A stretch of 64,000 nt of DNA from an uncultured Candidatus Saccharibacteria bacterium (GCA_964649535.1 CAZYTF010000001.1:1521-65520); one strand, 5' to 3'; shown: positions 1,527 through 52,714, numbered from the stretch's first letter. Made by a program: numbers and translations. The notes: generated from the sequence alone by a model not told the origin.

Positions 1527-1952
1527 TTAATCTAAATCACTTTCATCCGTGCCTTCCATTGCCGCCTGAATTTGAGTTGCGACGACAGCGAGTTCTTCGT
1601 CAGTAGCTTCCATGCCTTCAGACATTATCATACTTAGTGCCTTTTCAGTGTTTTGCATCGGGTAAATTTTTATATGCACGTGAGGAACCTCAAACCCTTC
1701 AACAACCAAGCATGTCCTTTCTGCATTCAGTGCTTTGTCAGAAGCTTTCCCAACCTTTTTGGCGACTTGAAAAAGGTGCAGATACGTATCATCGTCAAGA
1801 TCAAAGGCATAGTCAACATCTTTTTTTGGGATAATAACTGATTGACCTTTAACTGCAGGATTTTTGTCTAAAATGGCAATACAAAGATCGTCTTCATAAA
1901 TAAAATGAGCAGGAACCTCGCGCTTTATGATTTTTGTGAAAATAGAAGACAT
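1527..1952 (-). CDS. HIT-family (histidine triad) nucleotide hydrolase
   Basis: 141 aa with a histidine-triad motif VPHVHIKIYP and a HIT-like N-terminus (FTKIIKREVPAHFIYEDD). Confidence 0.85.
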   Translation of the reverse strand: MSSIFTKIIKREVPAHFIYEDDLCIAILDKNPAVKGQSVIIPKKDVDYAFDLDDDTYLHLFQVAKKVGKASDKALNAERTCLVVEGFEVPHVHIKIYPMQNTEKALSMIMSEGMEATDEELAVVATQIQAAMEGTDESDLD

Positions 1953-1963
1953 GACTGGATATT

Positions 1964-3724
1964 ATGAGATTATTGGAACATGGTACCATAGCTTTCATGG
2001 TTAACTACAGAGTGGCAGATGCTGCCCCCAAAGAGGTCAAAGAAATTCTGTTTGAGTATAGTCCTTTGGTGCAACAATTGCTCTATTCTCGGGGTATTGT
2101 AACGGTCAATGAGGCTCAATCTTTTTTAAATCCCTCATATGAAACTGATTTGCATGACCCGTTCCTTTTGCATGATATGGATATAGCAGTCACGCGAATT
2201 CTTGATGCAATGAAGAAAGATCAGAAGGTAGTTATTTATAGTGATTACGACTGTGATGGAATTCCGGGAGCTGTCATTCTCCATGATTTTTTTAAAATGG
2301 TTGGCTTTGGTAACTTCACTAACTATATCCCCCATAGACACTATGAAGGATTTGGCTTCAGTACCTACGCAGTGGGGAAGCTGTCTGAGGATGCTGTAGA
2401 GCTCATCATTACTATTGACTGTGGGACAACTGACGTTGAAGCTGCGGCACTTGCTAAAGAGAAGGGAATTGATGTCATTATTACTGACCATCATGAACCT
2501 AAACAATCTGAAAAAAAAGAACTAATGTTTCCTCAGGCGCATGCTATTGTGAATCCAAAGATTGGCGATACGTATCCGTTTGGAGGCTTGTGTGGAGCTG
2601 GCGTTGTTTTTAAGCTGGCTCAAGCGCTCATTGCTAAAGGTGTTCAAGAGCACATGTTTGAAATAAAACCAGGCTTGGAAAAGTGGTGGCTCGATATGGT
2701 GGGTATTGCAACTATCGCAGATATGGTGCCACTTACAGGTGAAAATCGTGCACTTGCGTATTATGGACTTCAGGTGCTGAGGAAGTCCCGACGTCCAGGG
2801 CTGCAGCAGCTTCTTCGCAAACAAGGGGTTCAACAAAGGTCACTGACCGAAGACGATATTGGATTTACTATTGGCCCTCGCATTAATGCGGCCTCAAGAA
2901 TGGATAATCCTGAAGATGCGTTTTGTCTGCTCACAACAACCGATGAAGGAGATGCAGGAGCCAGGGCAGCGCATTTGGAAAAATTGAATAATGAACGGCG
3001 AGGTCTCGTTGCTGCAATGACTAAAGAAGCGCATAAGCGACTTAAAGATATTGTTGAGGTACCTGATGTGCTGGTGATGGGAAATCCTGATTGGCGCCCT
3101 GCGTTGGTTGGACTTGTTGCGAATAAGCTGGCGGAAGAATATAAACGCCCGGCGTTCTTGTGGGGACGAGATGGAAATGGGGTAATAAAAGGTTCGTGTC
3201 GCTCAGACGGGCGGGTGAGCGTTGTGCGTCTTATGGAGGGTGTCACAGATCATTTTGATGAGCACGGTGGACACCATCAATCTGGTGGATTTAGTGTAGT
3301 AGAAGGTTCCATACATACCTTCTCGAAAGCACTTAATGACGCCTATGTTGCTTTGGGCGAAGGAGCTCTGATAGATGAAGAGTTACTCGTGGATCTTTCA
3401 TTGGAACTTCACGACATAGATACTGCCTTTTTGCGTGAACAAGTGAGTCTTTCGCCATTTGGTGTACATAACCCAAAGCCATTGTATGAGTTTAAAGATA
3501 TCGAGCCAACTTCGGTAGATATTTTCGGGAAAACAAAAGAACATACAAAACTTTTGTTCGAAACAGCAGGAATCGCTCGTGAAGCAATTGCCTTTTTTCG
3601 TTTGCCAGGACAGTTCTGTGCGGAACCAAAAGTGGGCCAAAAGCTAACGCTTTTGGCCCACTTAGAGCAGTCTTTTTTCATGGGGCGCCAACAAACTCGC
3701 TTACGCATCATAGATATTGTATAG
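1964..3724 (+). CDS. recJ: Single-stranded-DNA-specific exonuclease RecJ (DHH/DHHA1)
   Basis: 586 aa with DHH motifs (VVIYSDYDCDGIPG, ITDHHEP), GGH and a DHHA1-like C-terminus. The exact start is uncertain; the gene is divergent from the HIT gene with an 11-nt gap. Confidence 0.85.
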   Translation: MRLLEHGTIAFMVNYRVADAAPKEVKEILFEYSPLVQQLLYSRGIVTVNEAQSFLNPSYETDLHDPFLLHDMDIAVTRILDAMKKDQKVVIYSDYDCDGIPGAVILHDFFKMVGFGNFTNYIPHRHYEGFGFSTYAVGKLSEDAVELIITIDCGTTDVEAAALAKEKGIDVIITDHHEPKQSEKKELMFPQAHAIVNPKIGDTYPFGGLCGAGVVFKLAQALIAKGVQEHMFEIKPGLEKWWLDMVGIATIADMVPLTGENRALAYYGLQVLRKSRRPGLQQLLRKQGVQQRSLTEDDIGFTIGPRINAASRMDNPEDAFCLLTTTDEGDAGARAAHLEKLNNERRGLVAAMTKEAHKRLKDIVEVPDVLVMGNPDWRPALVGLVANKLAEEYKRPAFLWGRDGNGVIKGSCRSDGRVSVVRLMEGVTDHFDEHGGHHQSGGFSVVEGSIHTFSKALNDAYVALGEGALIDEELLVDLSLELHDIDTAFLREQVSLSPFGVHNPKPLYEFKDIEPTSVDIFGKTKEHTKLLFETAGIAREAIAFFRLPGQFCAEPKVGQKLTLLAHLEQSFFMGRQQTRLRIIDIV

Positions 3725-3731
3725 TCAGGAG

Positions 3732-4154
3732 ATGGAAAAAGTAATTGCGTATACAGATGGGGAAGCCCGAGGCAATCCAGGGCCTGCAGGAATCGGTGTG
3801 TACATACAGAATGAACAAGGAATGCTGTTGAAAGAAATGTCCGATTTTATTGGGAACAGTACTGATGATTTTGCTCAATATCAGGGCGTCATGACTGCAC
3901 TTCAAGCACTTGAAGATATGTACGGAAAGAAGTTGAAAGAAATGGAGTTTGAGATACGGATGGGTAGTGAACTCGTAAAGAAACAGCTAAATCATGAATG
4001 TCAGATAAAGGAACCAGGGATTGTCCCGATGTTTATTGAAATCCACAACATGCGCGTTTCAAGTTTTCCAAATCTTATCATCACACATGTTTCGAGCAAT
4101 AAAAATGCAGAAGCTAACCGTTTAGCTAACGAAGCAATAGAGACTAAAGGATAA
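3732..4154 (+). CDS. rnhA: Ribonuclease H (RNase HI-like)
   Basis: N-terminus IAYTDGEARGNPGPAGIGV is typical of the RNase H fold. The ATG at 3732 lies 8 nt after the recJ stop, which suggests translational coupling; the ORF track starts at a TTG at 3717. Confidence 0.7.
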   Translation: MEKVIAYTDGEARGNPGPAGIGVYIQNEQGMLLKEMSDFIGNSTDDFAQYQGVMTALQALEDMYGKKLKEMEFEIRMGSELVKKQLNHECQIKEPGIVPMFIEIHNMRVSSFPNLIITHVSSNKNAEANRLANEAIETKG

Positions 4155-4240
4155 TCTTCCTTGACCATGGTTTGATTCCATAGTATTTTCCTATTCACCA
4201 CTATTCAATTTCAGAAGTAGTGCGTTCTTTGGAGGAATGA

Positions 4241-4459
4241 ATGACTATTACAACAACAGTCACTAAAAATTCTGGTTTGTCAGCACGCTTGGAATCTTTG
4301 CGTGAAAAACATGAAAAACTTGATACAAAAATTTTGGCAGCTCAAAATTGTGTTTGTCCGGATTCACTCGAAATCACAGAGGATAAGCGCAGGAAGCTTA
4401 AATGCAAAGAAGAGATTTTGCGGATTGAAGAAAAGATTTCGAAGCTCCAGGAAGGGTGA
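4241..4459 (+). CDS. Small coiled-coil protein, DUF465/YdcH-like
   Basis: 72 aa. KRRKLKCKEEILRIEEKISKL resembles the conserved LKKrKLxLKDEI segment of the YdcH family. GGAGG ribosome-binding site 6 nt upstream. Confidence 0.4.
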   Translation: MTITTTVTKNSGLSARLESLREKHEKLDTKILAAQNCVCPDSLEITEDKRRKLKCKEEILRIEEKISKLQEG

Positions 4460-4554: not shown

Positions 4555-6162
4555 ATGCGTGGTGTATTTTTTTATGTTGCTGTCATAGGATTAGTGTTGG
4601 GTATTTTTGCACGTTCTCTGTATGAGTTTGGGGTAGAGAGTATTGCCTGGATATTGTTTCTAAGTTTCACTGCGGTAGTTATTTGGAAAAGAAGTACCTT
4701 AGTTGCCAGGGAGGAAATTAGTTTTGAAAACAAGTCTTCATGGAATCAGCACTCTTCATTGTCGTTCGTTTTGTTGTGTAGCATCTTCATGCTTTGCATG
4801 TCACTTGGGGCGTTGCGGATGGAAGTAGCCAATTGGAAAGATGGTCAGAGTCAGTTTCTGTCTTCAGTTGGAAAAGAAGTTGCTTTTAGAGGGGTTGTAC
4901 AAAGAGAGCCAGATATTAGGGAAAATGCGACACATCTCTATGTGCGTGTAGATACAGAAATTGTATTGGTGACTACGGACAGGTTTGCAAATATACGTTA
5001 TGGTGATGAGCTTTTTGTGACGGGGAAGCTCATGGAGCCCTCCTCATTTGAAACAGACTTAGGCCGCACTTTTAATTACCCAGGATATTTGAGGGCACGA
5101 GGTGTTGCGTACATGATGCAGTATGCAGACATCGAAAAAGTTTCTTCCGGAAAGGGAAATCGTGTTGTCTCGGCACTTTTGTCTTTTAAGATGCGTTTCA
5201 TGGAGAATATTGAAACGGTGCTACAGGAACCACATGCGGGGCTTTCAGAAGGATTGCTTCTCGGAGTGAAACGTGCACTTGGAGAAGATCTTGAAACTGT
5301 CTTTAGGAAAACTGGCATAATCCATATTGTTGTACTCTCTGGCTATAACATCATGCTTGTTGTAGCGTTTGTCATGTATGTGCTCGCATTTCTTTTGCCA
5401 ATGCGCGCACGTCTTGTGTTTGGAATTGTCGCAGTGTCTGCTTTTGCGCTTATGGTTGGACTGAGTGCAACGGTCGTTCGCGCCAGTATTATGGCGGCAC
5501 TCGTTTTGGTTGCACGTTCGTTTGGTCGAACCTATACCGTTATGCGTGCACTTATGCTTGCTGGCCTTGTGATGCTTTTCATTAATCCCTACTTACCTGT
5601 GTATGATACGGGTTTTCAGCTTTCATTTGTCGCGACGCTTGGACTGATACTGGTTGCTCCGGTTATAGAGGCACGACTTCATCTCGTGCCAACAGTAATT
5701 GGTCTACGTGAATTCCTTACCGCGACACTAGCTACACAACTTTTTGTGATGCCAATATTGCTATACCAAATCGGTGAGTTTTCTGTGGTCTCAGTGGTGG
5801 TGAATGTACTTGTCCTCCCAATGGTTCCTGTTGCGATGCTTTTAACTTTTGCAGCTGGCATGCTTGTGTTTGTTTCTCATACACTTGCATTGCCGATAGC
5901 GTTTGTGGCATACGGGTCACTGACATACATAATTTCTGTAGCAACATTCTTTGCTGCACTCCCGTTCGCATCATTTGTTGTTCCCACATTCCCTTTTGTG
6001 GGTGTGCTTGTTGCGTATGGTGTCCTTGGTTACGGACTTTATTATTTTTCTCATGTTAAAAAAGATACTAAAGATACTCAGACGTTCTCGGAGTGGACGA
6101 TAGAGGAGGCTGCAGATGTAGAAAGAGAAAAAGAAAAGCCTCTGCCTGTGTTCTTTCGGTAG
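4555..6162 (+). CDS. comEC: ComEC/Rec2 competence channel protein (DUF4131 plus Competence domain; no MBL domain)
   Basis: 535 aa polytopic membrane protein. Has an N-terminal OB-like region and the competence-domain motif (IIHIVVLSGYNIM, many TM helices). It ends before any beta-lactamase-fold domain. Confidence 0.75.
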   Translation: MRGVFFYVAVIGLVLGIFARSLYEFGVESIAWILFLSFTAVVIWKRSTLVAREEISFENKSSWNQHSSLSFVLLCSIFMLCMSLGALRMEVANWKDGQSQFLSSVGKEVAFRGVVQREPDIRENATHLYVRVDTEIVLVTTDRFANIRYGDELFVTGKLMEPSSFETDLGRTFNYPGYLRARGVAYMMQYADIEKVSSGKGNRVVSALLSFKMRFMENIETVLQEPHAGLSEGLLLGVKRALGEDLETVFRKTGIIHIVVLSGYNIMLVVAFVMYVLAFLLPMRARLVFGIVAVSAFALMVGLSATVVRASIMAALVLVARSFGRTYTVMRALMLAGLVMLFINPYLPVYDTGFQLSFVATLGLILVAPVIEARLHLVPTVIGLREFLTATLATQLFVMPILLYQIGEFSVVSVVVNVLVLPMVPVAMLLTFAAGMLVFVSHTLALPIAFVAYGSLTYIISVATFFAALPFASFVVPTFPFVGVLVAYGVLGYGLYYFSHVKKDTKDTQTFSEWTIEEAADVEREKEKPLPVFFR

Positions 6163-6253
6163 TCTTCACAAGATAGTATTGTGTTGCATATTAATAATTT
6201 CTTCTCAAAATGGGTATACTAAATTTATATACATCGAGATACAGGAGGTTGTT

Positions 6254-6340
6254 ATGATAATTTTTCATTATCCAGTAAGTTTCCTCATTGTGTGTGTTGT
6301 ACTTCTTTTTCTTAGCGCATTAGTTTTGGGACTTATTTAG
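6254..6340 (+). CDS. 28-aa hydrophobic small ORF (MIIFHYPVSFLIVCVVLLFLSALVLGLI)
   Basis: ACAGGAGG ribosome-binding site 5 nt upstream of the ATG, a single predicted TM helix, and a hairpin plus T-run immediately downstream. It is below the 60-aa cutoff of the ORF track. Confidence 0.3.
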   Translation: MIIFHYPVSFLIVCVVLLFLSALVLGLI

Positions 6341-6352
6341 TATAAGTTGATT

Positions 6353-6389
6353 CGCCTGACTAGGCATGCAGCCTGGTCAGGTGCTTTTT
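6353..6389 (+). terminator. Hairpin plus U-run after the small ORF
   Basis: cctgac...gtcagg stem followed by cttttta. Confidence 0.4.
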
Positions 6390-6437
6390 AATAAAATATA
6401 TTTACCAACGCTTCATTCTCCCTTATACTAAGAAGAT

Positions 6438-7043
6438 ATGAAAAAAGTTAACATTCGCGAATCCCTTGGAGTAGGATGGTCACAATTTAAAAAACGGCCA
6501 TGGTACCTCCTCGGGCTCACGCTTGCAGTTGCGGGATTATTTGTAGTAGCTGGCGTTAATGAAGTGGGGGTTACAGCACTTGCCTATATTGTGTACGGTG
6601 GTTTTATAGCGATACTCCTTAAACATTACGCGGGTCAGGTTGTGGAATTCGATGATTTATTTGATATCGATAAACGGTGGGTTTACTTTGCATTCCTTGG
6701 AATAATCAAAACTTTGTTGATAATGCTTGGTTTTCTCTGCTTCGTAATTCCAGGAATCTACCTTTCTGTACGATGGATGTTTGCTGAACTCTTTGTTATT
6801 GACCAAGGAATGCGACCTGTAGAGGCACTCAGAGCGAGCAGCAAGATTGTCGAAGGACACTGGTGGAAGTTATTTTTGTTCAGCATTGCGGGAGTGTTAT
6901 TGGTAGTAGTGAGTCTCTTTGCGTTTATTGTTGGTGCTGTCATTGCGTGGATTGTCATGCATTTTGCAGTAATCAAAATATATAAAAATTTACAACTCAC
7001 TGAAGTATTGGTTGAAACAGAGGCTCCGTATATTGAAAATTAG
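6438..7043 (+). CDS. Integral membrane protein (DUF975-like topology), function unknown
   Basis: 201 aa with 4-5 predicted TM helices and no catalytic motif recognised. Confidence 0.5.
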   Translation: MKKVNIRESLGVGWSQFKKRPWYLLGLTLAVAGLFVVAGVNEVGVTALAYIVYGGFIAILLKHYAGQVVEFDDLFDIDKRWVYFAFLGIIKTLLIMLGFLCFVIPGIYLSVRWMFAELFVIDQGMRPVEALRASSKIVEGHWWKLFLFSIAGVLLVVVSLFAFIVGAVIAWIVMHFAVIKIYKNLQLTEVLVETEAPYIEN

Positions 7044-7046
7044 AAA

Positions 7047-7091
7047 GCACATAAAAAAGCGGCACCTTTGGGCGCCGCTTTTTTATGTGCT
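7047..7091. terminator. Bidirectional intrinsic terminator (17-bp inverted repeat)
   Basis: gcacataaaaaagcggc ... gccgcttttttatgtgc, lying between convergent genes. Confidence 0.6.
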
Positions 7092-7664
7092 TTACACTCG
7101 ACCTGCGACAACTTCCCAGTTGAGGTTTTCAAAGAAAGCATCGATATACTTTTTCTTTTCACTTGGCGGGTAGTCAAGCATGTATGAATGTTCCCACATG
7201 TCGAGTCCGAATACGATGTGCACATCAGCAAGTTGTCCAATGTGTTGCTCGTCCACCCATGTGCAGACAAGTTTGTGTACTGAAGCATCGAAATATACGA
7301 GCACCCAGCCTACTCCTCTCGTCATTGCGGTGCCAGAAACATGGGCAACGAATCCCTCCCAAGAACCATACTGCTCTTCAGCAAGAGTTTTGAAAGTTCC
7401 TTCAGGGACTTCTTTTGCTCCACCTTCAAACTGCTCAAAATAGTATTCGTGGTTTTTCATCCCTCCGAACTCAAATCCAAGACGACGGTTCACTTCAGCG
7501 AGTGCATACGCATTTTTTTCTGAATCTTGCTTTAGTTCAGCAATTTTTTCATGGATAAGATTCACATGTTTTACGTATCCTGCGTAAAGGCCTAAGTGTT
7601 CTTTAATGGTATTCTCTGAAATTCCTTTAAGTTTGGGAATAGTAAATGTTTTTATTTCGTACAT
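7092..7664 (-). CDS. sodA: Fe/Mn superoxide dismutase
   Basis: 190 aa from MYEIKTFTIPKL. The C-terminus DMWEHSYMLDY and the NHxxYF motifs are diagnostic for Fe/Mn SOD. The annotated 302-aa ORF carries a non-coding 5' extension. Confidence 0.9.
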   Translation of the reverse strand: MYEIKTFTIPKLKGISENTIKEHLGLYAGYVKHVNLIHEKIAELKQDSEKNAYALAEVNRRLGFEFGGMKNHEYYFEQFEGGAKEVPEGTFKTLAEEQYGSWEGFVAHVSGTAMTRGVGWVLVYFDASVHKLVCTWVDEQHIGQLADVHIVFGLDMWEHSYMLDYPPSEKKKYIDAFFENLNWEVVAGRV

Positions 7665-7713
7665 AGTGGTGATTTTACAGACCGGTAATGGTGACCAGTG
7701 TATCATATTCATA

Positions 7714-8577
7714 ATGACAGACACTCTTGCGCGTATGCGTCTCATGATTTTAATTATGCTGCTTCTATCTATGGCAGGGGTGTGGATATTGCCGAAGATG
7801 GAGGAAGAAGAACGGAATCCTGAACTTTTTGTATCCTTCCTTAACATCGGGCAAGGGGACGCTGTGTTTATCGAAACTGCATCAGGGGTACAGATACTTA
7901 TAGACGGCGGTCCAACCTCAGCGATACTTCGCGAACTTGCAGAGGTAATGGATATATTCGATACACACATTGATATTGTCGTCGGGACACATCCTGACAA
8001 AGATCATATTGGGGGACTTGTCGATGTTCTGAATCGATATAACGTTGATACTATTATTACTACTGAGAATGAGTCTGAAAGTGCAGTTTTCCAAGCATTT
8101 AAAGATGCAGTCGCTGCTGAAGAAGCGGATGTTATTCTGGCGCGAAGAGGGCAGATTGTTACGCTCGATGCCAGCACAACTCTTGAGATTTTGTTTCCAG
8201 AAAATAATCCAAAAGACATGGAAAGTAATGCTTCATCGATTGTGCTTAGGCTGACGTACGGAGAAAGTTCTTTTTTATTTACAGGAGATTCACCAAAACG
8301 AATTGAGGAGTACTTAGTGTTGGCAGAAGGGGAGTATCTCAAAAGTGATGTACTTAAGATTGGGCATCATGGTTCACGTACCTCAACATCCGAGATTTTT
8401 CTTGATGAAGTGCACCCTACCTATGCAGTTATTTCAGCAGGCAGAGATAATAGTTATGGACATCCACATGTTGAAGTCACTGACACGCTTTTCAACGCAG
8501 GCGTTCGAATCCTCAATACAGCAGAGGTTGGAAGAATTACTTTTGTATCTGACGGGGAAGGTATACAAGTTAAATAA
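7714..8577 (+). CDS. MBL-fold metallo-hydrolase, ComEC C-terminal (Lactamase_B) domain-like, stand-alone
   Basis: Motifs FLNIGQGDAVFIE, VVGTHPDKDHIGG and KIGHHGSRTSTS match the ComEC-type beta-lactamase domain. The N-terminus has a signal/TM segment. The start at ATG 7714 avoids overlap with sodA. Confidence 0.75.
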   Translation: MTDTLARMRLMILIMLLLSMAGVWILPKMEEEERNPELFVSFLNIGQGDAVFIETASGVQILIDGGPTSAILRELAEVMDIFDTHIDIVVGTHPDKDHIGGLVDVLNRYNVDTIITTENESESAVFQAFKDAVAAEEADVILARRGQIVTLDASTTLEILFPENNPKDMESNASSIVLRLTYGESSFLFTGDSPKRIEEYLVLAEGEYLKSDVLKIGHHGSRTSTSEIFLDEVHPTYAVISAGRDNSYGHPHVEVTDTLFNAGVRILNTAEVGRITFVSDGEGIQVK

Positions 8578-8600
8578 AAAAAGCGGCATGCCCGCTTTTG
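8577..8600. terminator. Intrinsic terminator (aagcgg-catgcc-cgctt)
   Basis: Hairpin with flanking A/T runs between convergent genes. Confidence 0.5.
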
Positions 8601-8602
8601 GT

Positions 8603-9001
8603 CTACTCACTGACAGGCATTCGAGTCAATAACTTTTGGTAATCGGACTCGACGTGCGCTATCGTTCGTTGCGTATGTGCTAGAGCAAGAAGGTATGCAA
8701 TTTCTCTTTGCATACTCTCACTTTCGATTCTTGACTCTGGTGTTGTAAAAATGGTGCTGTAGTACAGTTCGTAACTTGTCAGAATCATGCCCAACACTTT
8801 GCTGACTTCATTCAATCCAAAGTGTTTTGACAGCAACCCAAGTATTTGTCGTTCAGTCCTGACTTGCGTGTGTGAACGAACTGCAAGTTCGGAATTGAAG
8901 TAAAGTTCTTGGCATGCTTTTATCAGCAGTTGCCATCGCTCTGGACTGAGTTTCGTTATACGACGTCGTGAAGATATGTGAATAATGTTTGATTTTCCCA
9001 T
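8603..9001 (-). CDS. Hypothetical protein (possible HTH-containing)
   Basis: 132 aa. AGGAGAAG ribosome-binding site and a TATACT -10 upstream. No confident family. Confidence 0.4.
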   Translation of the reverse strand: MGKSNIIHISSRRRITKLSPERWQLLIKACQELYFNSELAVRSHTQVRTERQILGLLSKHFGLNEVSKVLGMILTSYELYYSTIFTTPESRIESESMQREIAYLLALAHTQRTIAHVESDYQKLLTRMPVSE

Positions 9002-51352: not shown

Positions 51353-52714
51353 ATGTCTTCAGTTTTAGGTTTTTATGGAGGAGTTGGAAGCGTCACTGGG
51401 GCTAATTTTATGCTCGATACTGGGGATGTTTCACTTTTGGTTGATTGTGGACTTGTACAAGGTGATCGCTTTGCTCAACAAGTGAATGCTGATCCTTTCG
51501 TATATAATCCAGCAGATATTGATGTGTTGCTTGTGACACACGCGCATGCCGACCATATAGGACGCATTCCAAAGCTTGTGAAAGATGGTTTTAAAGGCAT
51601 TATTTATTCTACTGAACCAACTCGCGATTTTTCAAGTATTATGTTGCGCGATGCACTTAAGGTTATGCAATACGAAAAAGAGCGGTATGGAAATGAGGTG
51701 CTGTACGGTGGAAGTGACATAGATGCCGCACTATCGCTATGGAAATCCGTTCCTTATAATGAAGCTATTCAGCTTGGAGAAGGGCTCACCGCCTACTACA
51801 CAGACGTTGGTCATATTCTTGGTTCAGGTCTTGTACATATTGAGCGTAATGGGAAGAAGATAATTTTCACAGGAGACATCGGCAATAAACCGCAACCGCT
51901 CCTTGCTCCTCCAGTTATACCAAAAGATTACGACTATATCGTGATGGAAAGTGTCTATGGGGACCGTCAGCATGAACAAGTTGAGGAGCGCACTGAGCTT
52001 TTAAAGGGATATATCGAGGAGGCTCGTCGCAAGAAGGGCACGCTAATCATTCCCGCATTCTCACTTGAGCGGACGCAAGGAATGCTACTTGAGATAAACA
52101 ATCTTGTCGAAAGTGGGGAGATAGAGCCCTTGCCAGTTTTTCTTGATTCGCCATTGGCGATTTCAGTTACTGAAATGTATCGCAAATATCCTCAGTATTT
52201 AAAGCCTGAAGTGCAGGAGCAAATTAAAAATGGAGATGACATTTTTGATTTTGAAGGGCTCTCGTTCACACGAACAGTTAAGGATTCACAAGACATTGGA
52301 AAAGAGAAAGGAGCAAAAATTATTATTGCGGGGAGTGGCATGAGTCATGGAGGTCGTATCCGTGGGCACGAGAAGCGTTATCTTGATGATCCGAGCACGA
52401 TATTGTTGCTTGTGGGGTATCAGTCAGTCGGAAGTCTCGGTCGCCTGCTCCAGGATGGTGCACAAAAAGTGCGTATTGATGAAGATTTCGTGAAAGTAAA
52501 AGCTCGCGTTGCACAAATTCGTGGGTATTCAGGACATGCTGATCGAGATCAATTACTTGAGTTTATTGCCGAAGGTGGTGAAAAGGCTAAGCAAGTGTTC
52601 GTCACAATGGGAGAGGAACATGCCTCATTATTTTTAGTACAACGACTCCGTGATTATCTAGGACTGAATGCTACAGCTCCATCATTAAATGATGAAGTTG
52701 AAATTGATTTTTAA
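51353..52714 (+). CDS. Beta-CASP family MBL-fold ribonuclease (CPSF/RNase J-like)
   Basis: MBL motifs (HAHADHIG, D, H) followed by beta-CASP and an RNA-specificity C-terminal region. 453 aa. Confidence 0.7.
   Translation: MSSVLGFYGGVGSVTGANFMLDTGDVSLLVDCGLVQGDRFAQQVNADPFVYNPADIDVLLVTHAHADHIGRIPKLVKDGFKGIIYSTEPTRDFSSIMLRDALKVMQYEKERYGNEVLYGGSDIDAALSLWKSVPYNEAIQLGEGLTAYYTDVGHILGSGLVHIERNGKKIIFTGDIGNKPQPLLAPPVIPKDYDYIVMESVYGDRQHEQVEERTELLKGYIEEARRKKGTLIIPAFSLERTQGMLLEINNLVESGEIEPLPVFLDSPLAISVTEMYRKYPQYLKPEVQEQIKNGDDIFDFEGLSFTRTVKDSQDIGKEKGAKIIIAGSGMSHGGRIRGHEKRYLDDPSTILLLVGYQSVGSLGRLLQDGAQKVRIDEDFVKVKARVAQIRGYSGHADRDQLLEFIAEGGEKAKQVFVTMGEEHASLFLVQRLRDYLGLNATAPSLNDEVEIDF

Follow-up and report, generated by a model that had tools for sequence, protein, structure and literature searches.

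Two genes for one ComEC: a membrane channel and a separately anchored nuclease domain in a large clade of Patescibacteria

ComEC is the universal DNA-import channel of natural transformation. In a 64,000-nucleotide stretch of DNA deposited under the name of an uncultured Candidatus Saccharibacteria bacterium (GCA_964649535.1, CAZYTF010000001.1:1521-65520), which as a whole we call the window, the comEC gene ends where the channel ends, and a gene for a protein of the metallo-beta-lactamase (MBL) fold lies further downstream. The question raised by this locus is whether a single ComEC is encoded here in two parts, whether the division is real, and whether the parts would still work as one machine. 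A first-pass annotation made from the sequence alone had proposed such a two-gene ComEC, with a superoxide dismutase (SOD) gene on the opposite strand between the halves, and the domain content and the family and structure matches agree with it: ComEC in the window consists of two genes, one for the membrane channel and one for a separately anchored nuclease. Open reading frames (ORFs) stand at the four positions that it had given, for the channel gene, a membrane protein, the SOD and the MBL gene, and the distance from the stop codon of the channel gene to the start of the MBL gene, given there as 1.5 kb, is 1,551 nt.

The channel gene, comEC-N (4555-6162, plus strand), encodes 535 amino acids and was assigned by Pfam, by alignment to a solved structure and by an AlphaFold2 (AF2) model. 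The Competence domain (PF03772) covers residues 234-498 with 172.5 bits against a cut-off of 23, the DUF4131/OB fold domain (PF13567) covers residues 33-195 with 48.5 bits (cut-off 31.6), and the NCBIfam model TIGR00360 is matched with 83.3 bits (cut-off 36.5). In the protein, three N-terminal transmembrane (TM) helices and the OB fold are followed by the competence domain, which extends as far as TM10, and then by a short cytoplasmic tail with a helix resembling the cytoplasmic helix CH1; the AF2 model likewise gives three N-terminal helices and a beta-rich domain at 108-197. As had been noted, this ORF stops after the competence domain, and the Pfam scan found no MBL domain in it.

The nuclease gene, comEC-C (7714-8577, plus strand), was assigned by profile and structure matches and encodes a signal-anchor helix, equivalent to TM11 of ComEC, followed by an MBL domain of ComEC type. 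It is indeed a separate gene, but the product has 287 residues from the ATG at 7714, and not 288: the mechanical ORF (7606-8577) would give 323 residues, and this ATG is the start used in independent gene calls and in every homologue. The possibility that its best match would be an MBL family other than ComEC did not hold, as both the best family and the best structure matches are ComEC. [quoted passage not shown] Annotation pipelines already call the stand-alone protein 'competence protein ComEC'. As a single polypeptide of the canonical 'DCL' type neither half qualifies, as TIGR00361 gives the two halves 89.2 and 129.4 bits, where at least 190 would be required.

The motifs FLNIGQGDA, HPDKDH and KIGHHGS that had been read in this protein are all there. 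G46-Q-G-D49, H93-P-D95-K-D97-H98, N172, D192, H218-H219 and H250 are invariant in 22 homologues of 56-64% identity, and the metal-binding residues align with the ligands of 9ic4 and 30bt. The ComEC-type active site is complete, with H-x-D-x-D-H as motif II, Asn in place of His in motif III, Asp in motif IV and His in motif V; the HxDxDH motif II and the motif III Asn are ComEC-specific variants (Silale 2021, PMC8579336; PMC12455585). The modelled domain superposes on 9ic4 with a TM-score of 0.82, normalised to the target, at 32% identity (Foldseek). The signal or TM segment attributed to this gene corresponds to its only hydrophobic segment, which spans residues 4-30, with R7 and R9 ahead of it and KMEEEER behind. 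Since the arginines stand before the helix and the acidic stretch after it, the positive-inside rule predicts a signal anchor with the N terminus inside and the C terminus outside, which would place the nuclease outside the cell as in fused ComEC. The window has a second, unrelated MBL-fold gene (51353-52714, plus strand), which encodes a 453-aa beta-CASP/RMMBL protein (RNase J/CPSF-like) with no N-terminal TM segment.

Where would a full-length ComEC be cut to give these two proteins? The structure 30bt is the full-length ComEC of Neomoorella carbonis, solved by cryo-EM with 11 TM helices and with CH1 between TM10 and TM11 (PMC13539106). comEC-N aligns to residues 113-470 of 30bt_A, with an envelope to 493, and comEC-C to residues 511-793, the TM helix before the MBL domain included, so that the two window proteins tile full-length ComEC with a break at about 493-511 of 30bt. 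We also ran AF2 on the two proteins joined head to tail, with a 46-row alignment of homologues of each half. The joined model (mean pLDDT 83.5, pTM 0.65) has TM10 at 481-500, a CH1-like helix at 517-527 and TM11 at 538-566, the last corresponding to residues 3-31 of the MBL protein; low confidence is found mainly at the junction (502-541), and a stretch inside the MBL domain (733-737) is also below 50. In a Foldseek search of this model against a PDB copy to April 2026, which contains no full-length ComEC entry, the MBL domain was the only part to match (9ic4). Sequence and model thus put the break in the cytoplasmic TM10-TM11 loop, between CH1 and TM11. As every split MBL protein starts with a short K/R-rich stretch and about 20 hydrophobic residues, the cut lies in the same loop everywhere. 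[quoted passage not shown] Such an interface is the kind of connection that could persist after a chain break.

Compared with fused ComEC/Rec2, as in B. subtilis, N. carbonis (30bt) or the TIGR00361 model, the window has the same parts in the same order, namely the N-terminal TM helices and OB fold, the competence channel, and TM11 with the MBL nuclease, and the same metal-ligand motifs (HxDxDH, the motif III Asn, D, HH and H). It differs from them in the chain, broken between CH1 and TM11, and in the genes, between which lie 1.55 kb with terminators and an antisense SOD gene.

An error of sequencing or assembly was an obvious concern, and the read-error check that had been proposed turned up nothing to support it. 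The same 12.9-kb region, with the same gene calls, is present in independent assemblies (ENA ERZ27315625 and Logan SRR7528855; five contigs in all). Among the 120 best homologues of the MBL half, lengths run from 269 to 324 aa, nearly all being about 287 aa, which is the split length; among the 120 best of the channel half they run from 440 to 581 aa, and PF00753 is found in none of them. These lengths are kept in more than 100 homologues of either half, whose identity is 49-65%. Sequencing error, frameshift and misassembly at the window are excluded by the identical independent assemblies together with the split-length homologues of both halves, and the inheritance of the layout across a large group of relatives likewise shows that the split is no such error.

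To see how far the arrangement extends, one genome per GTDB species was searched with the MBL alignment, and the 80 best loci were classified by phmmer against six-frame segments. This survey of fused and split forms, suggested along with the original observation, gave no fused locus in Patescibacteria among the 80. Thus the split is the conserved state of a large Patescibacteria clade and no peculiarity of the window locus. Channel gene, minus-strand SOD gene and MBL gene follow one another in 18 loci, all from Paceibacteria-type lineages of the Patescibacteria. In 12 further Patescibacteria loci the channel and MBL genes abut or overlap, and in one they are 189 nt apart with no gene between. 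The slot is occupied by a minus-strand VTT/DedA gene in four loci (L006-L008 and L061) and by other inserts in another four (L033, L051, L056 and L078), two of which carry bin labels from outside the candidate phyla radiation (CPR), yet fall among CPR in the MBL tree. About 39 CPR loci carry the channel and MBL genes on the same strand and no more than 6 kb apart. Twelve Patescibacteria loci have an MBL gene upstream of a conserved L28/M50/S12 block with at least 3.5 kb of upstream sequence and no channel gene within 3.5-6 kb; the order MBL, (L28), M50, S12 is kept even where the channel gene is absent. The same state, at least 3.5 kb upstream and no channel gene, occurs once outside CPR, in Lysinibacillus (L084), and 11 loci of mixed origin had too little upstream sequence to judge.

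All 14 fused loci, of about 800-855 aa where complete, belong to Chloroflexota. Two more Chloroflexota loci (L073 and L083) have out-of-frame adjacent halves, possibly errors, and an Anaerolineae locus (L058) has channel and MBL genes about 1 kb apart. L073 and L083 lie next to fused relatives, with overlaps of 598 nt and 43 nt between the frames (in L083, a Dehalococcoidia locus, with an ATGA start-stop overlap), and represent either recent fissions that arose independently in the same loop or errors that shift the frame.

The nearest labelled homologues of the window proteins are from Parcubacteria/Paceibacterota, with Yonath-, Kaiser-, Taylor- and Nomurabacteria among them, and the placement is taken from homologue labels alone. 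The NCBI labels 'uncultured Candidatus Saccharibacteria' and 'Gammaproteobacteria' on many such metagenome bins look like placeholders rather than taxonomy. In a neighbour-joining (NJ) tree of the MBL domains, which was midpoint-rooted, carries no support values and is indicative only, the window and all SOD-containing loci form one group. Two metagenomic loci of about 60% identity (L003 and L005) share the order HIT, RecJ, RNase H, ComEC-N (plus), SOD (minus), MBL (plus), L28 (minus), M50, S12 and S7.

Several details of these loci are of interest in their own right. Where the two genes adjoin, the MBL gene starts at an ATG of its own, just after or overlapping the channel stop, as TAGATG (L039), TAAATG (L044) or with a 23-nt overlap (L019 and L074). 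In three loci (L039 5577-5582, L044 5908-5913 and L059 5917-5919) channel and MBL are in one frame with a single stop between them (TAG, TAA and TGA, respectively), and in two of the three the next codon is ATG; such loci may be relics of the fission itself, or the stop codon could now and then be read through to yield a fused protein. The VTT/DedA genes, all on the minus strand (L006 5212-5802, L007 1070-1660, L008 5396-6028 and L061 5203-5862), are in Yonathbacteria-type loci, the assignment to PF09335 coming from Pfam runs on L006 and L061, and the slot between the ComEC halves seems to take in single antisense genes repeatedly. Upstream of comEC-N, at 1527-4459 of the window, lie genes for a HIT hydrolase (minus strand), RecJ and an RNase H-like protein and, in the window, DUF465, and this synteny is found in most Paceibacteria loci, L003 and L005 included. 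A 5'-3' single-stranded DNA exonuclease gene beside a DNA-import channel could bear on the fate of the imported DNA.

Stand-alone ComEC-type MBL genes also occur in Firmicutes, with reading frames of 366-533 aa in Lysinibacillus sphaericus (L084), Sporanaerobacter (L065) and Clostridia (L067). No channel gene lies within 6 kb in the first, and the upstream sequence is too short to judge in the other two. Planococcaceae and Clostridiaceae are listed as having 'lost' the ComEC MBL domain (Pimentel and Zhang, PMC6299819), and taken together with these genes the listing suggests that C-terminal domains (CTDs) encoded in trans may exist outside CPR.

The literature gives a frame for this arrangement. 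The window channel gene has the DUF4131 and Competence profile of the CTD-less ComECs ('DC' profile, Pimentel and Zhang 2018) of H. pylori, Deinococcus and Saccharibacteria; unlike in these, the 'missing' domain has a TM-anchored gene to itself, in most cases close by. The fusion of ComEC and MBL was reported to be essentially absent from CPR, in only six genomes (Meheust et al. 2019, PMC6744442). Pimentel and Zhang inferred gains and losses of Lactamase_B from domains scored only within Competence-domain proteins (PMC6299819), and for this reason such surveys would record the trans-encoded domain as lost. How the non-transported strand is removed in CTD-less ComECs, roughly half of all ComECs, has been called an open question (Silale et al. 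2021, PMC8579336). In S. pneumoniae the separately encoded, membrane-bound nuclease EndA degrades that strand beside ComEC (PMC8579336, PMC12455585), as we propose for the nuclease subunit here; in contrast to EndA, which has an unrelated nuclease fold, the trans nuclease of the window is ComEC's own domain, split off together with its TM helix. A literature search for split ComEC in CPR found no description of a separate, linked TM11-MBL gene or of the SOD-interrupted layout, although such absence is no proof; the one match to a split comEC was a pneumococcus preprint, with nothing in its title to connect it to CPR. The parts are all known ones, yet their arrangement is real, conserved and mechanistically suggestive.

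Do the two proteins then work together? Homology, tiling, conservation of the catalytic and metal motifs, and the occurrence of the gene pair in cis across many Patescibacteria lineages in several layouts are shown computationally, and we consider it probable that this is a two-gene ComEC in which the nuclease subunit is supplied in trans to the channel subunit. Gene 1 would give the membrane channel (TM1-TM10) with its external DNA-binding OB fold, and gene 2 the TM11 equivalent with an extracytoplasmic, Mn-type MBL nuclease domain. The nuclease subunit would insert N-in/C-out by its signal-anchor helix and dock on the channel through packing of TM11 and the small interface between OB loop and MBL domain, as in the cryo-EM structure. 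The OB fold would bind DNA, one strand would be imported, and TM11-MBL would degrade the non-transported strand at the channel mouth. As to its evolution, a break at the TM10-TM11 loop may have left the two genes as an operon with coupled translation, a state that persists in Moranbacteria, Magasanikbacteria and others; the SOD gene would then have been inserted antisense in the ancestor of one Paceibacteria clade, and the membrane-protein gene later in the lineage of the window.

Some points weigh against this two-subunit ComEC. The window genes are predicted not to be co-transcribed, as two putative terminators (6353-6383 and 7045-7092) and an antisense gene intervene. The 12 CPR loci with no channel gene in at least 3.5 kb upstream indicate that the linkage between channel and MBL is dispensable. 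The AF2 model is that of an artificially joined chain, and an NJ tree without root or support does not settle the direction, fission or fusion. Moreover, transformation in the Saccharibacterium Southlakia epibionticum proceeds with a non-essential ComEC of 482 aa whose domains are PF03772 and PF13567 alone (PMC10633639). The S. epibionticum Tn-seq gene table has a single 'MBL fold' gene, and its product, of 211 aa, is of a different subfamily, PF13483 (PMC10633639, supplementary file 1), so that not all CPR need a ComEC-type nuclease in trans.

The S. epibionticum PF13483 gene, SEML1_0132, occupies the same slot as the window MBL gene, with L28 (minus strand) and a site-2 protease gene following immediately downstream, and is located away from the gene for the 482-aa ComEC without an MBL domain, SEML1_0777; it is either a degenerate ComEC CTD or an unrelated MBL.

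The alternative that survives best is that the TM-anchored MBL protein descends from the ComEC nuclease and works alone, as a surface nuclease or phosphodiesterase that would break down nucleic acid from the environment or a host for nutrient salvage, with no docking on the channel. It would account for the separate transcription units of the window, for the 12 CPR loci without a neighbouring channel gene and for the sufficiency of a CTD-less ComEC in a Saccharibacterium, and the isolated ComEC MBL domain is an active endonuclease and 5'-3' exonuclease in vitro (PMC12455585). However, the helix equivalent to TM11 is kept in every split form, and some 39 CPR loci hold both genes on the same strand within 6 kb, 12 of them abutting or overlapping in an operon-like manner; we regard this lone enzyme as rather unlikely.

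A different substrate, and not only a different partner, might also be considered. The protein could act on a phosphodiester other than DNA, such as envelope phosphorylcholine or a teichoic-acid-like ester, in the manner of Pce/CbpE of S. pneumoniae, which is the closest non-ComEC structure and the next Foldseek match after 9ic4 (2bib and 1wra, E 1.6e-09 to 3e-08). The ComEC CTD does have general phosphodiesterase activity in vitro (PMC8579336). Nevertheless, its match to the window protein is far stronger than that of Pce, with the identity and TM-score given above against 16-17% identity, the protein has the Asp of motif II and the Asn of motif III that are specific to ComEC, and the gene is syntenic with the channel gene, all of which makes this substrate very improbable.

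ComEC-like MBL domains also serve as effectors in the anti-phage systems Lamassu, Avs1, DRT and the trypsin-MBL modules, and those of LmuA, Avs1a and trypsin-MBL share the subfamily fold and the stand-alone form of the window protein. PADLOC matched it to LmuA (97.5 bits), to the reverse transcriptase (RT)-associated MBL (83.7 bits) and to Avs1a (65.9 bits), and NCBIfam to Avs1a and 6A-MBL. These matches are partial or far below cut-off (Avs1a 72.1 bits, cut-off 420; 6A-MBL 40.6 bits, cut-off 220) and all weaker than those to ComEC, and no partner gene (SMC/LmuB, RT, STAND NTPase or trypsin-like protease) lies nearby. In contrast to those effectors, the window protein belongs to a housekeeping block conserved across the phylum and has a TM anchor that would put the domain outside the cell. 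We reject a defence effector on these grounds, its likelihood being slight in the extreme. Finally, that the split is an artefact or a decaying pseudogene of a formerly fused comEC, as the out-of-frame Chloroflexota halves beside fused relatives could be if they are errors, is hardly conceivable in the window, given 1.55 kb, two other genes and terminators between the halves, the agreement of independent assemblies, the kept lengths of so many homologues and the invariant catalytic residues.

The region between the two halves of the probable two-subunit ComEC deserves a description. After comEC-N, a terminator-like hairpin with a T-run was found at 6353-6383 (plus strand) by a consensus scan, as a pattern match only, with 13 pairs, 8 of them G-C, and the tail CTTTTTAATA. 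The spacer between comEC-N and the membrane-protein gene also holds, before this hairpin, a 28-codon ORF (6255-6341, plus strand) for a purely hydrophobic peptide, MIIFHYPVSFLIVCVVLLFLSALVLGLI, with a strong AGGAGG 7 nt 5' of its ATG; this spacer has no counterpart in L003 or L005. At 6438-7043 (plus strand) follows a gene for a 201-aa multi-pass membrane protein with about four hydrophobic segments, whose resemblance to DUF975/YciC/GPDPase_memb comes from sub-threshold Pfam and NCBIfam matches only. L003, L005 and every other SOD-containing locus lack it at this position, and L021 carries a homologue elsewhere; it is a lineage-specific insertion and not part of ComEC.

Between the convergent membrane-protein and SOD genes lies a hairpin resembling a bidirectional intrinsic terminator (7045-7092; up to 20 pairs, flanked by an A-run and a T-run), which would separate the transcription of comEC-N from the MBL gene. 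Owing to these terminators and the antisense gene, the two ComEC halves of the window are taken to be separate transcription units. The SOD gene (7092-7664, minus strand; 190 aa, assigned by Pfam and PDB matches) is convergent with the genes upstream, divergent from the MBL gene and antisense to both ComEC halves. Its product belongs to the Fe/Mn family, with Sod_Fe_C at 68.9 bits (cut-off 20.9) and Sod_Fe_N at 22.6 bits, below the cut-off of 27, and its best PDB match is the Aquifex Fe-SOD 1coj (E 7.3e-21, full length), all the ligand positions His, His, Asp and His being aligned. Both intervening genes had thus been recognised correctly by the first-pass annotation, but its label sodA is too specific for this divergent SOD, to which we assign no metal, since its scores stay below the NCBIfam equivalog cut-offs.

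The SOD and MBL start codons are separated by a divergent intergenic region of 49 bp (7665-7713), read directly from the sequence; the spacer has 47 bp in L003 (7954-8000) and 14 bp in L005 (7987-8000). A consensus scan of 7665-7713 gave no Shine-Dalgarno sequence and no sigma-70 match, and no sigma-70 consensus promoter was found upstream of the MBL gene, the overall matches (13) not exceeding those in shuffled sequence (10.5). With spacers this short and lacking consensus motifs, the promoters must overlap coding sequence, or the mRNAs must be leaderless; for the MBL gene, leaderless transcripts and promoters within the neighbouring gene are both possibilities. At 8579-8599, a palindromic terminator-like hairpin, with 8 pairs on the minus strand and flanking A- and T-runs (pattern only), is shared by the MBL gene and a convergent gene, and its palindrome and flanking runs suggest that it acts on both strands. 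That convergent gene is a 132-aa ORF (8603-9001, minus strand) between the MBL gene and L28, for which Pfam and PADLOC gave no match; only the lineage of the window (L001 and L002) has it, and L003 and L005 do not. An Rfam scan of the whole 64-kb window gave nothing at gathering thresholds, with no tRNA, ribosomal-protein leader or riboswitch, despite the S10/spc/str ribosomal-protein clusters.

A bolder proposal can be built on the divergent arrangement: TM11-MBL would be a dissociable, separately regulated nuclease subunit of ComEC, its supply would be co-regulated with oxidative stress, and many CTD-less ComECs would use a nuclease in trans. We hold this to be doubtful and decidedly speculative. 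If true, the 14-49-bp divergent control region shared by SOD and MBL across a whole Paceibacteria clade would tie DNA uptake to the oxidative-stress response, and the choice between importing DNA and merely digesting it would be regulated along with oxidative stress.

The conserved split has consequences for how ComEC is understood in these bacteria. As an answer to the question raised by Silale et al., it suggests that in a large part of the Patescibacteria the nuclease domain has not been lost, but is encoded as its own membrane-anchored gene, cut at the TM10-TM11 loop. It is also a natural 'split-protein' experiment, in which TM11 and the nuclease are a separable module, and this fits the mobile TM11 and flexible linker of the cryo-EM structure. 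The first-pass annotation had also seen a relevance to nucleotide scavenging in reduced genomes such as these; that link is conjectural, the split itself being no evidence that imported DNA feeds nucleotide salvage, and in the one genetically tractable CPR bacterium comEC is needed for transformation but not for growth (PMC10633639). Domain-based surveys, and the calls of ComEC as present or absent in metabolic reconstructions of CPR, mis-score these genomes.

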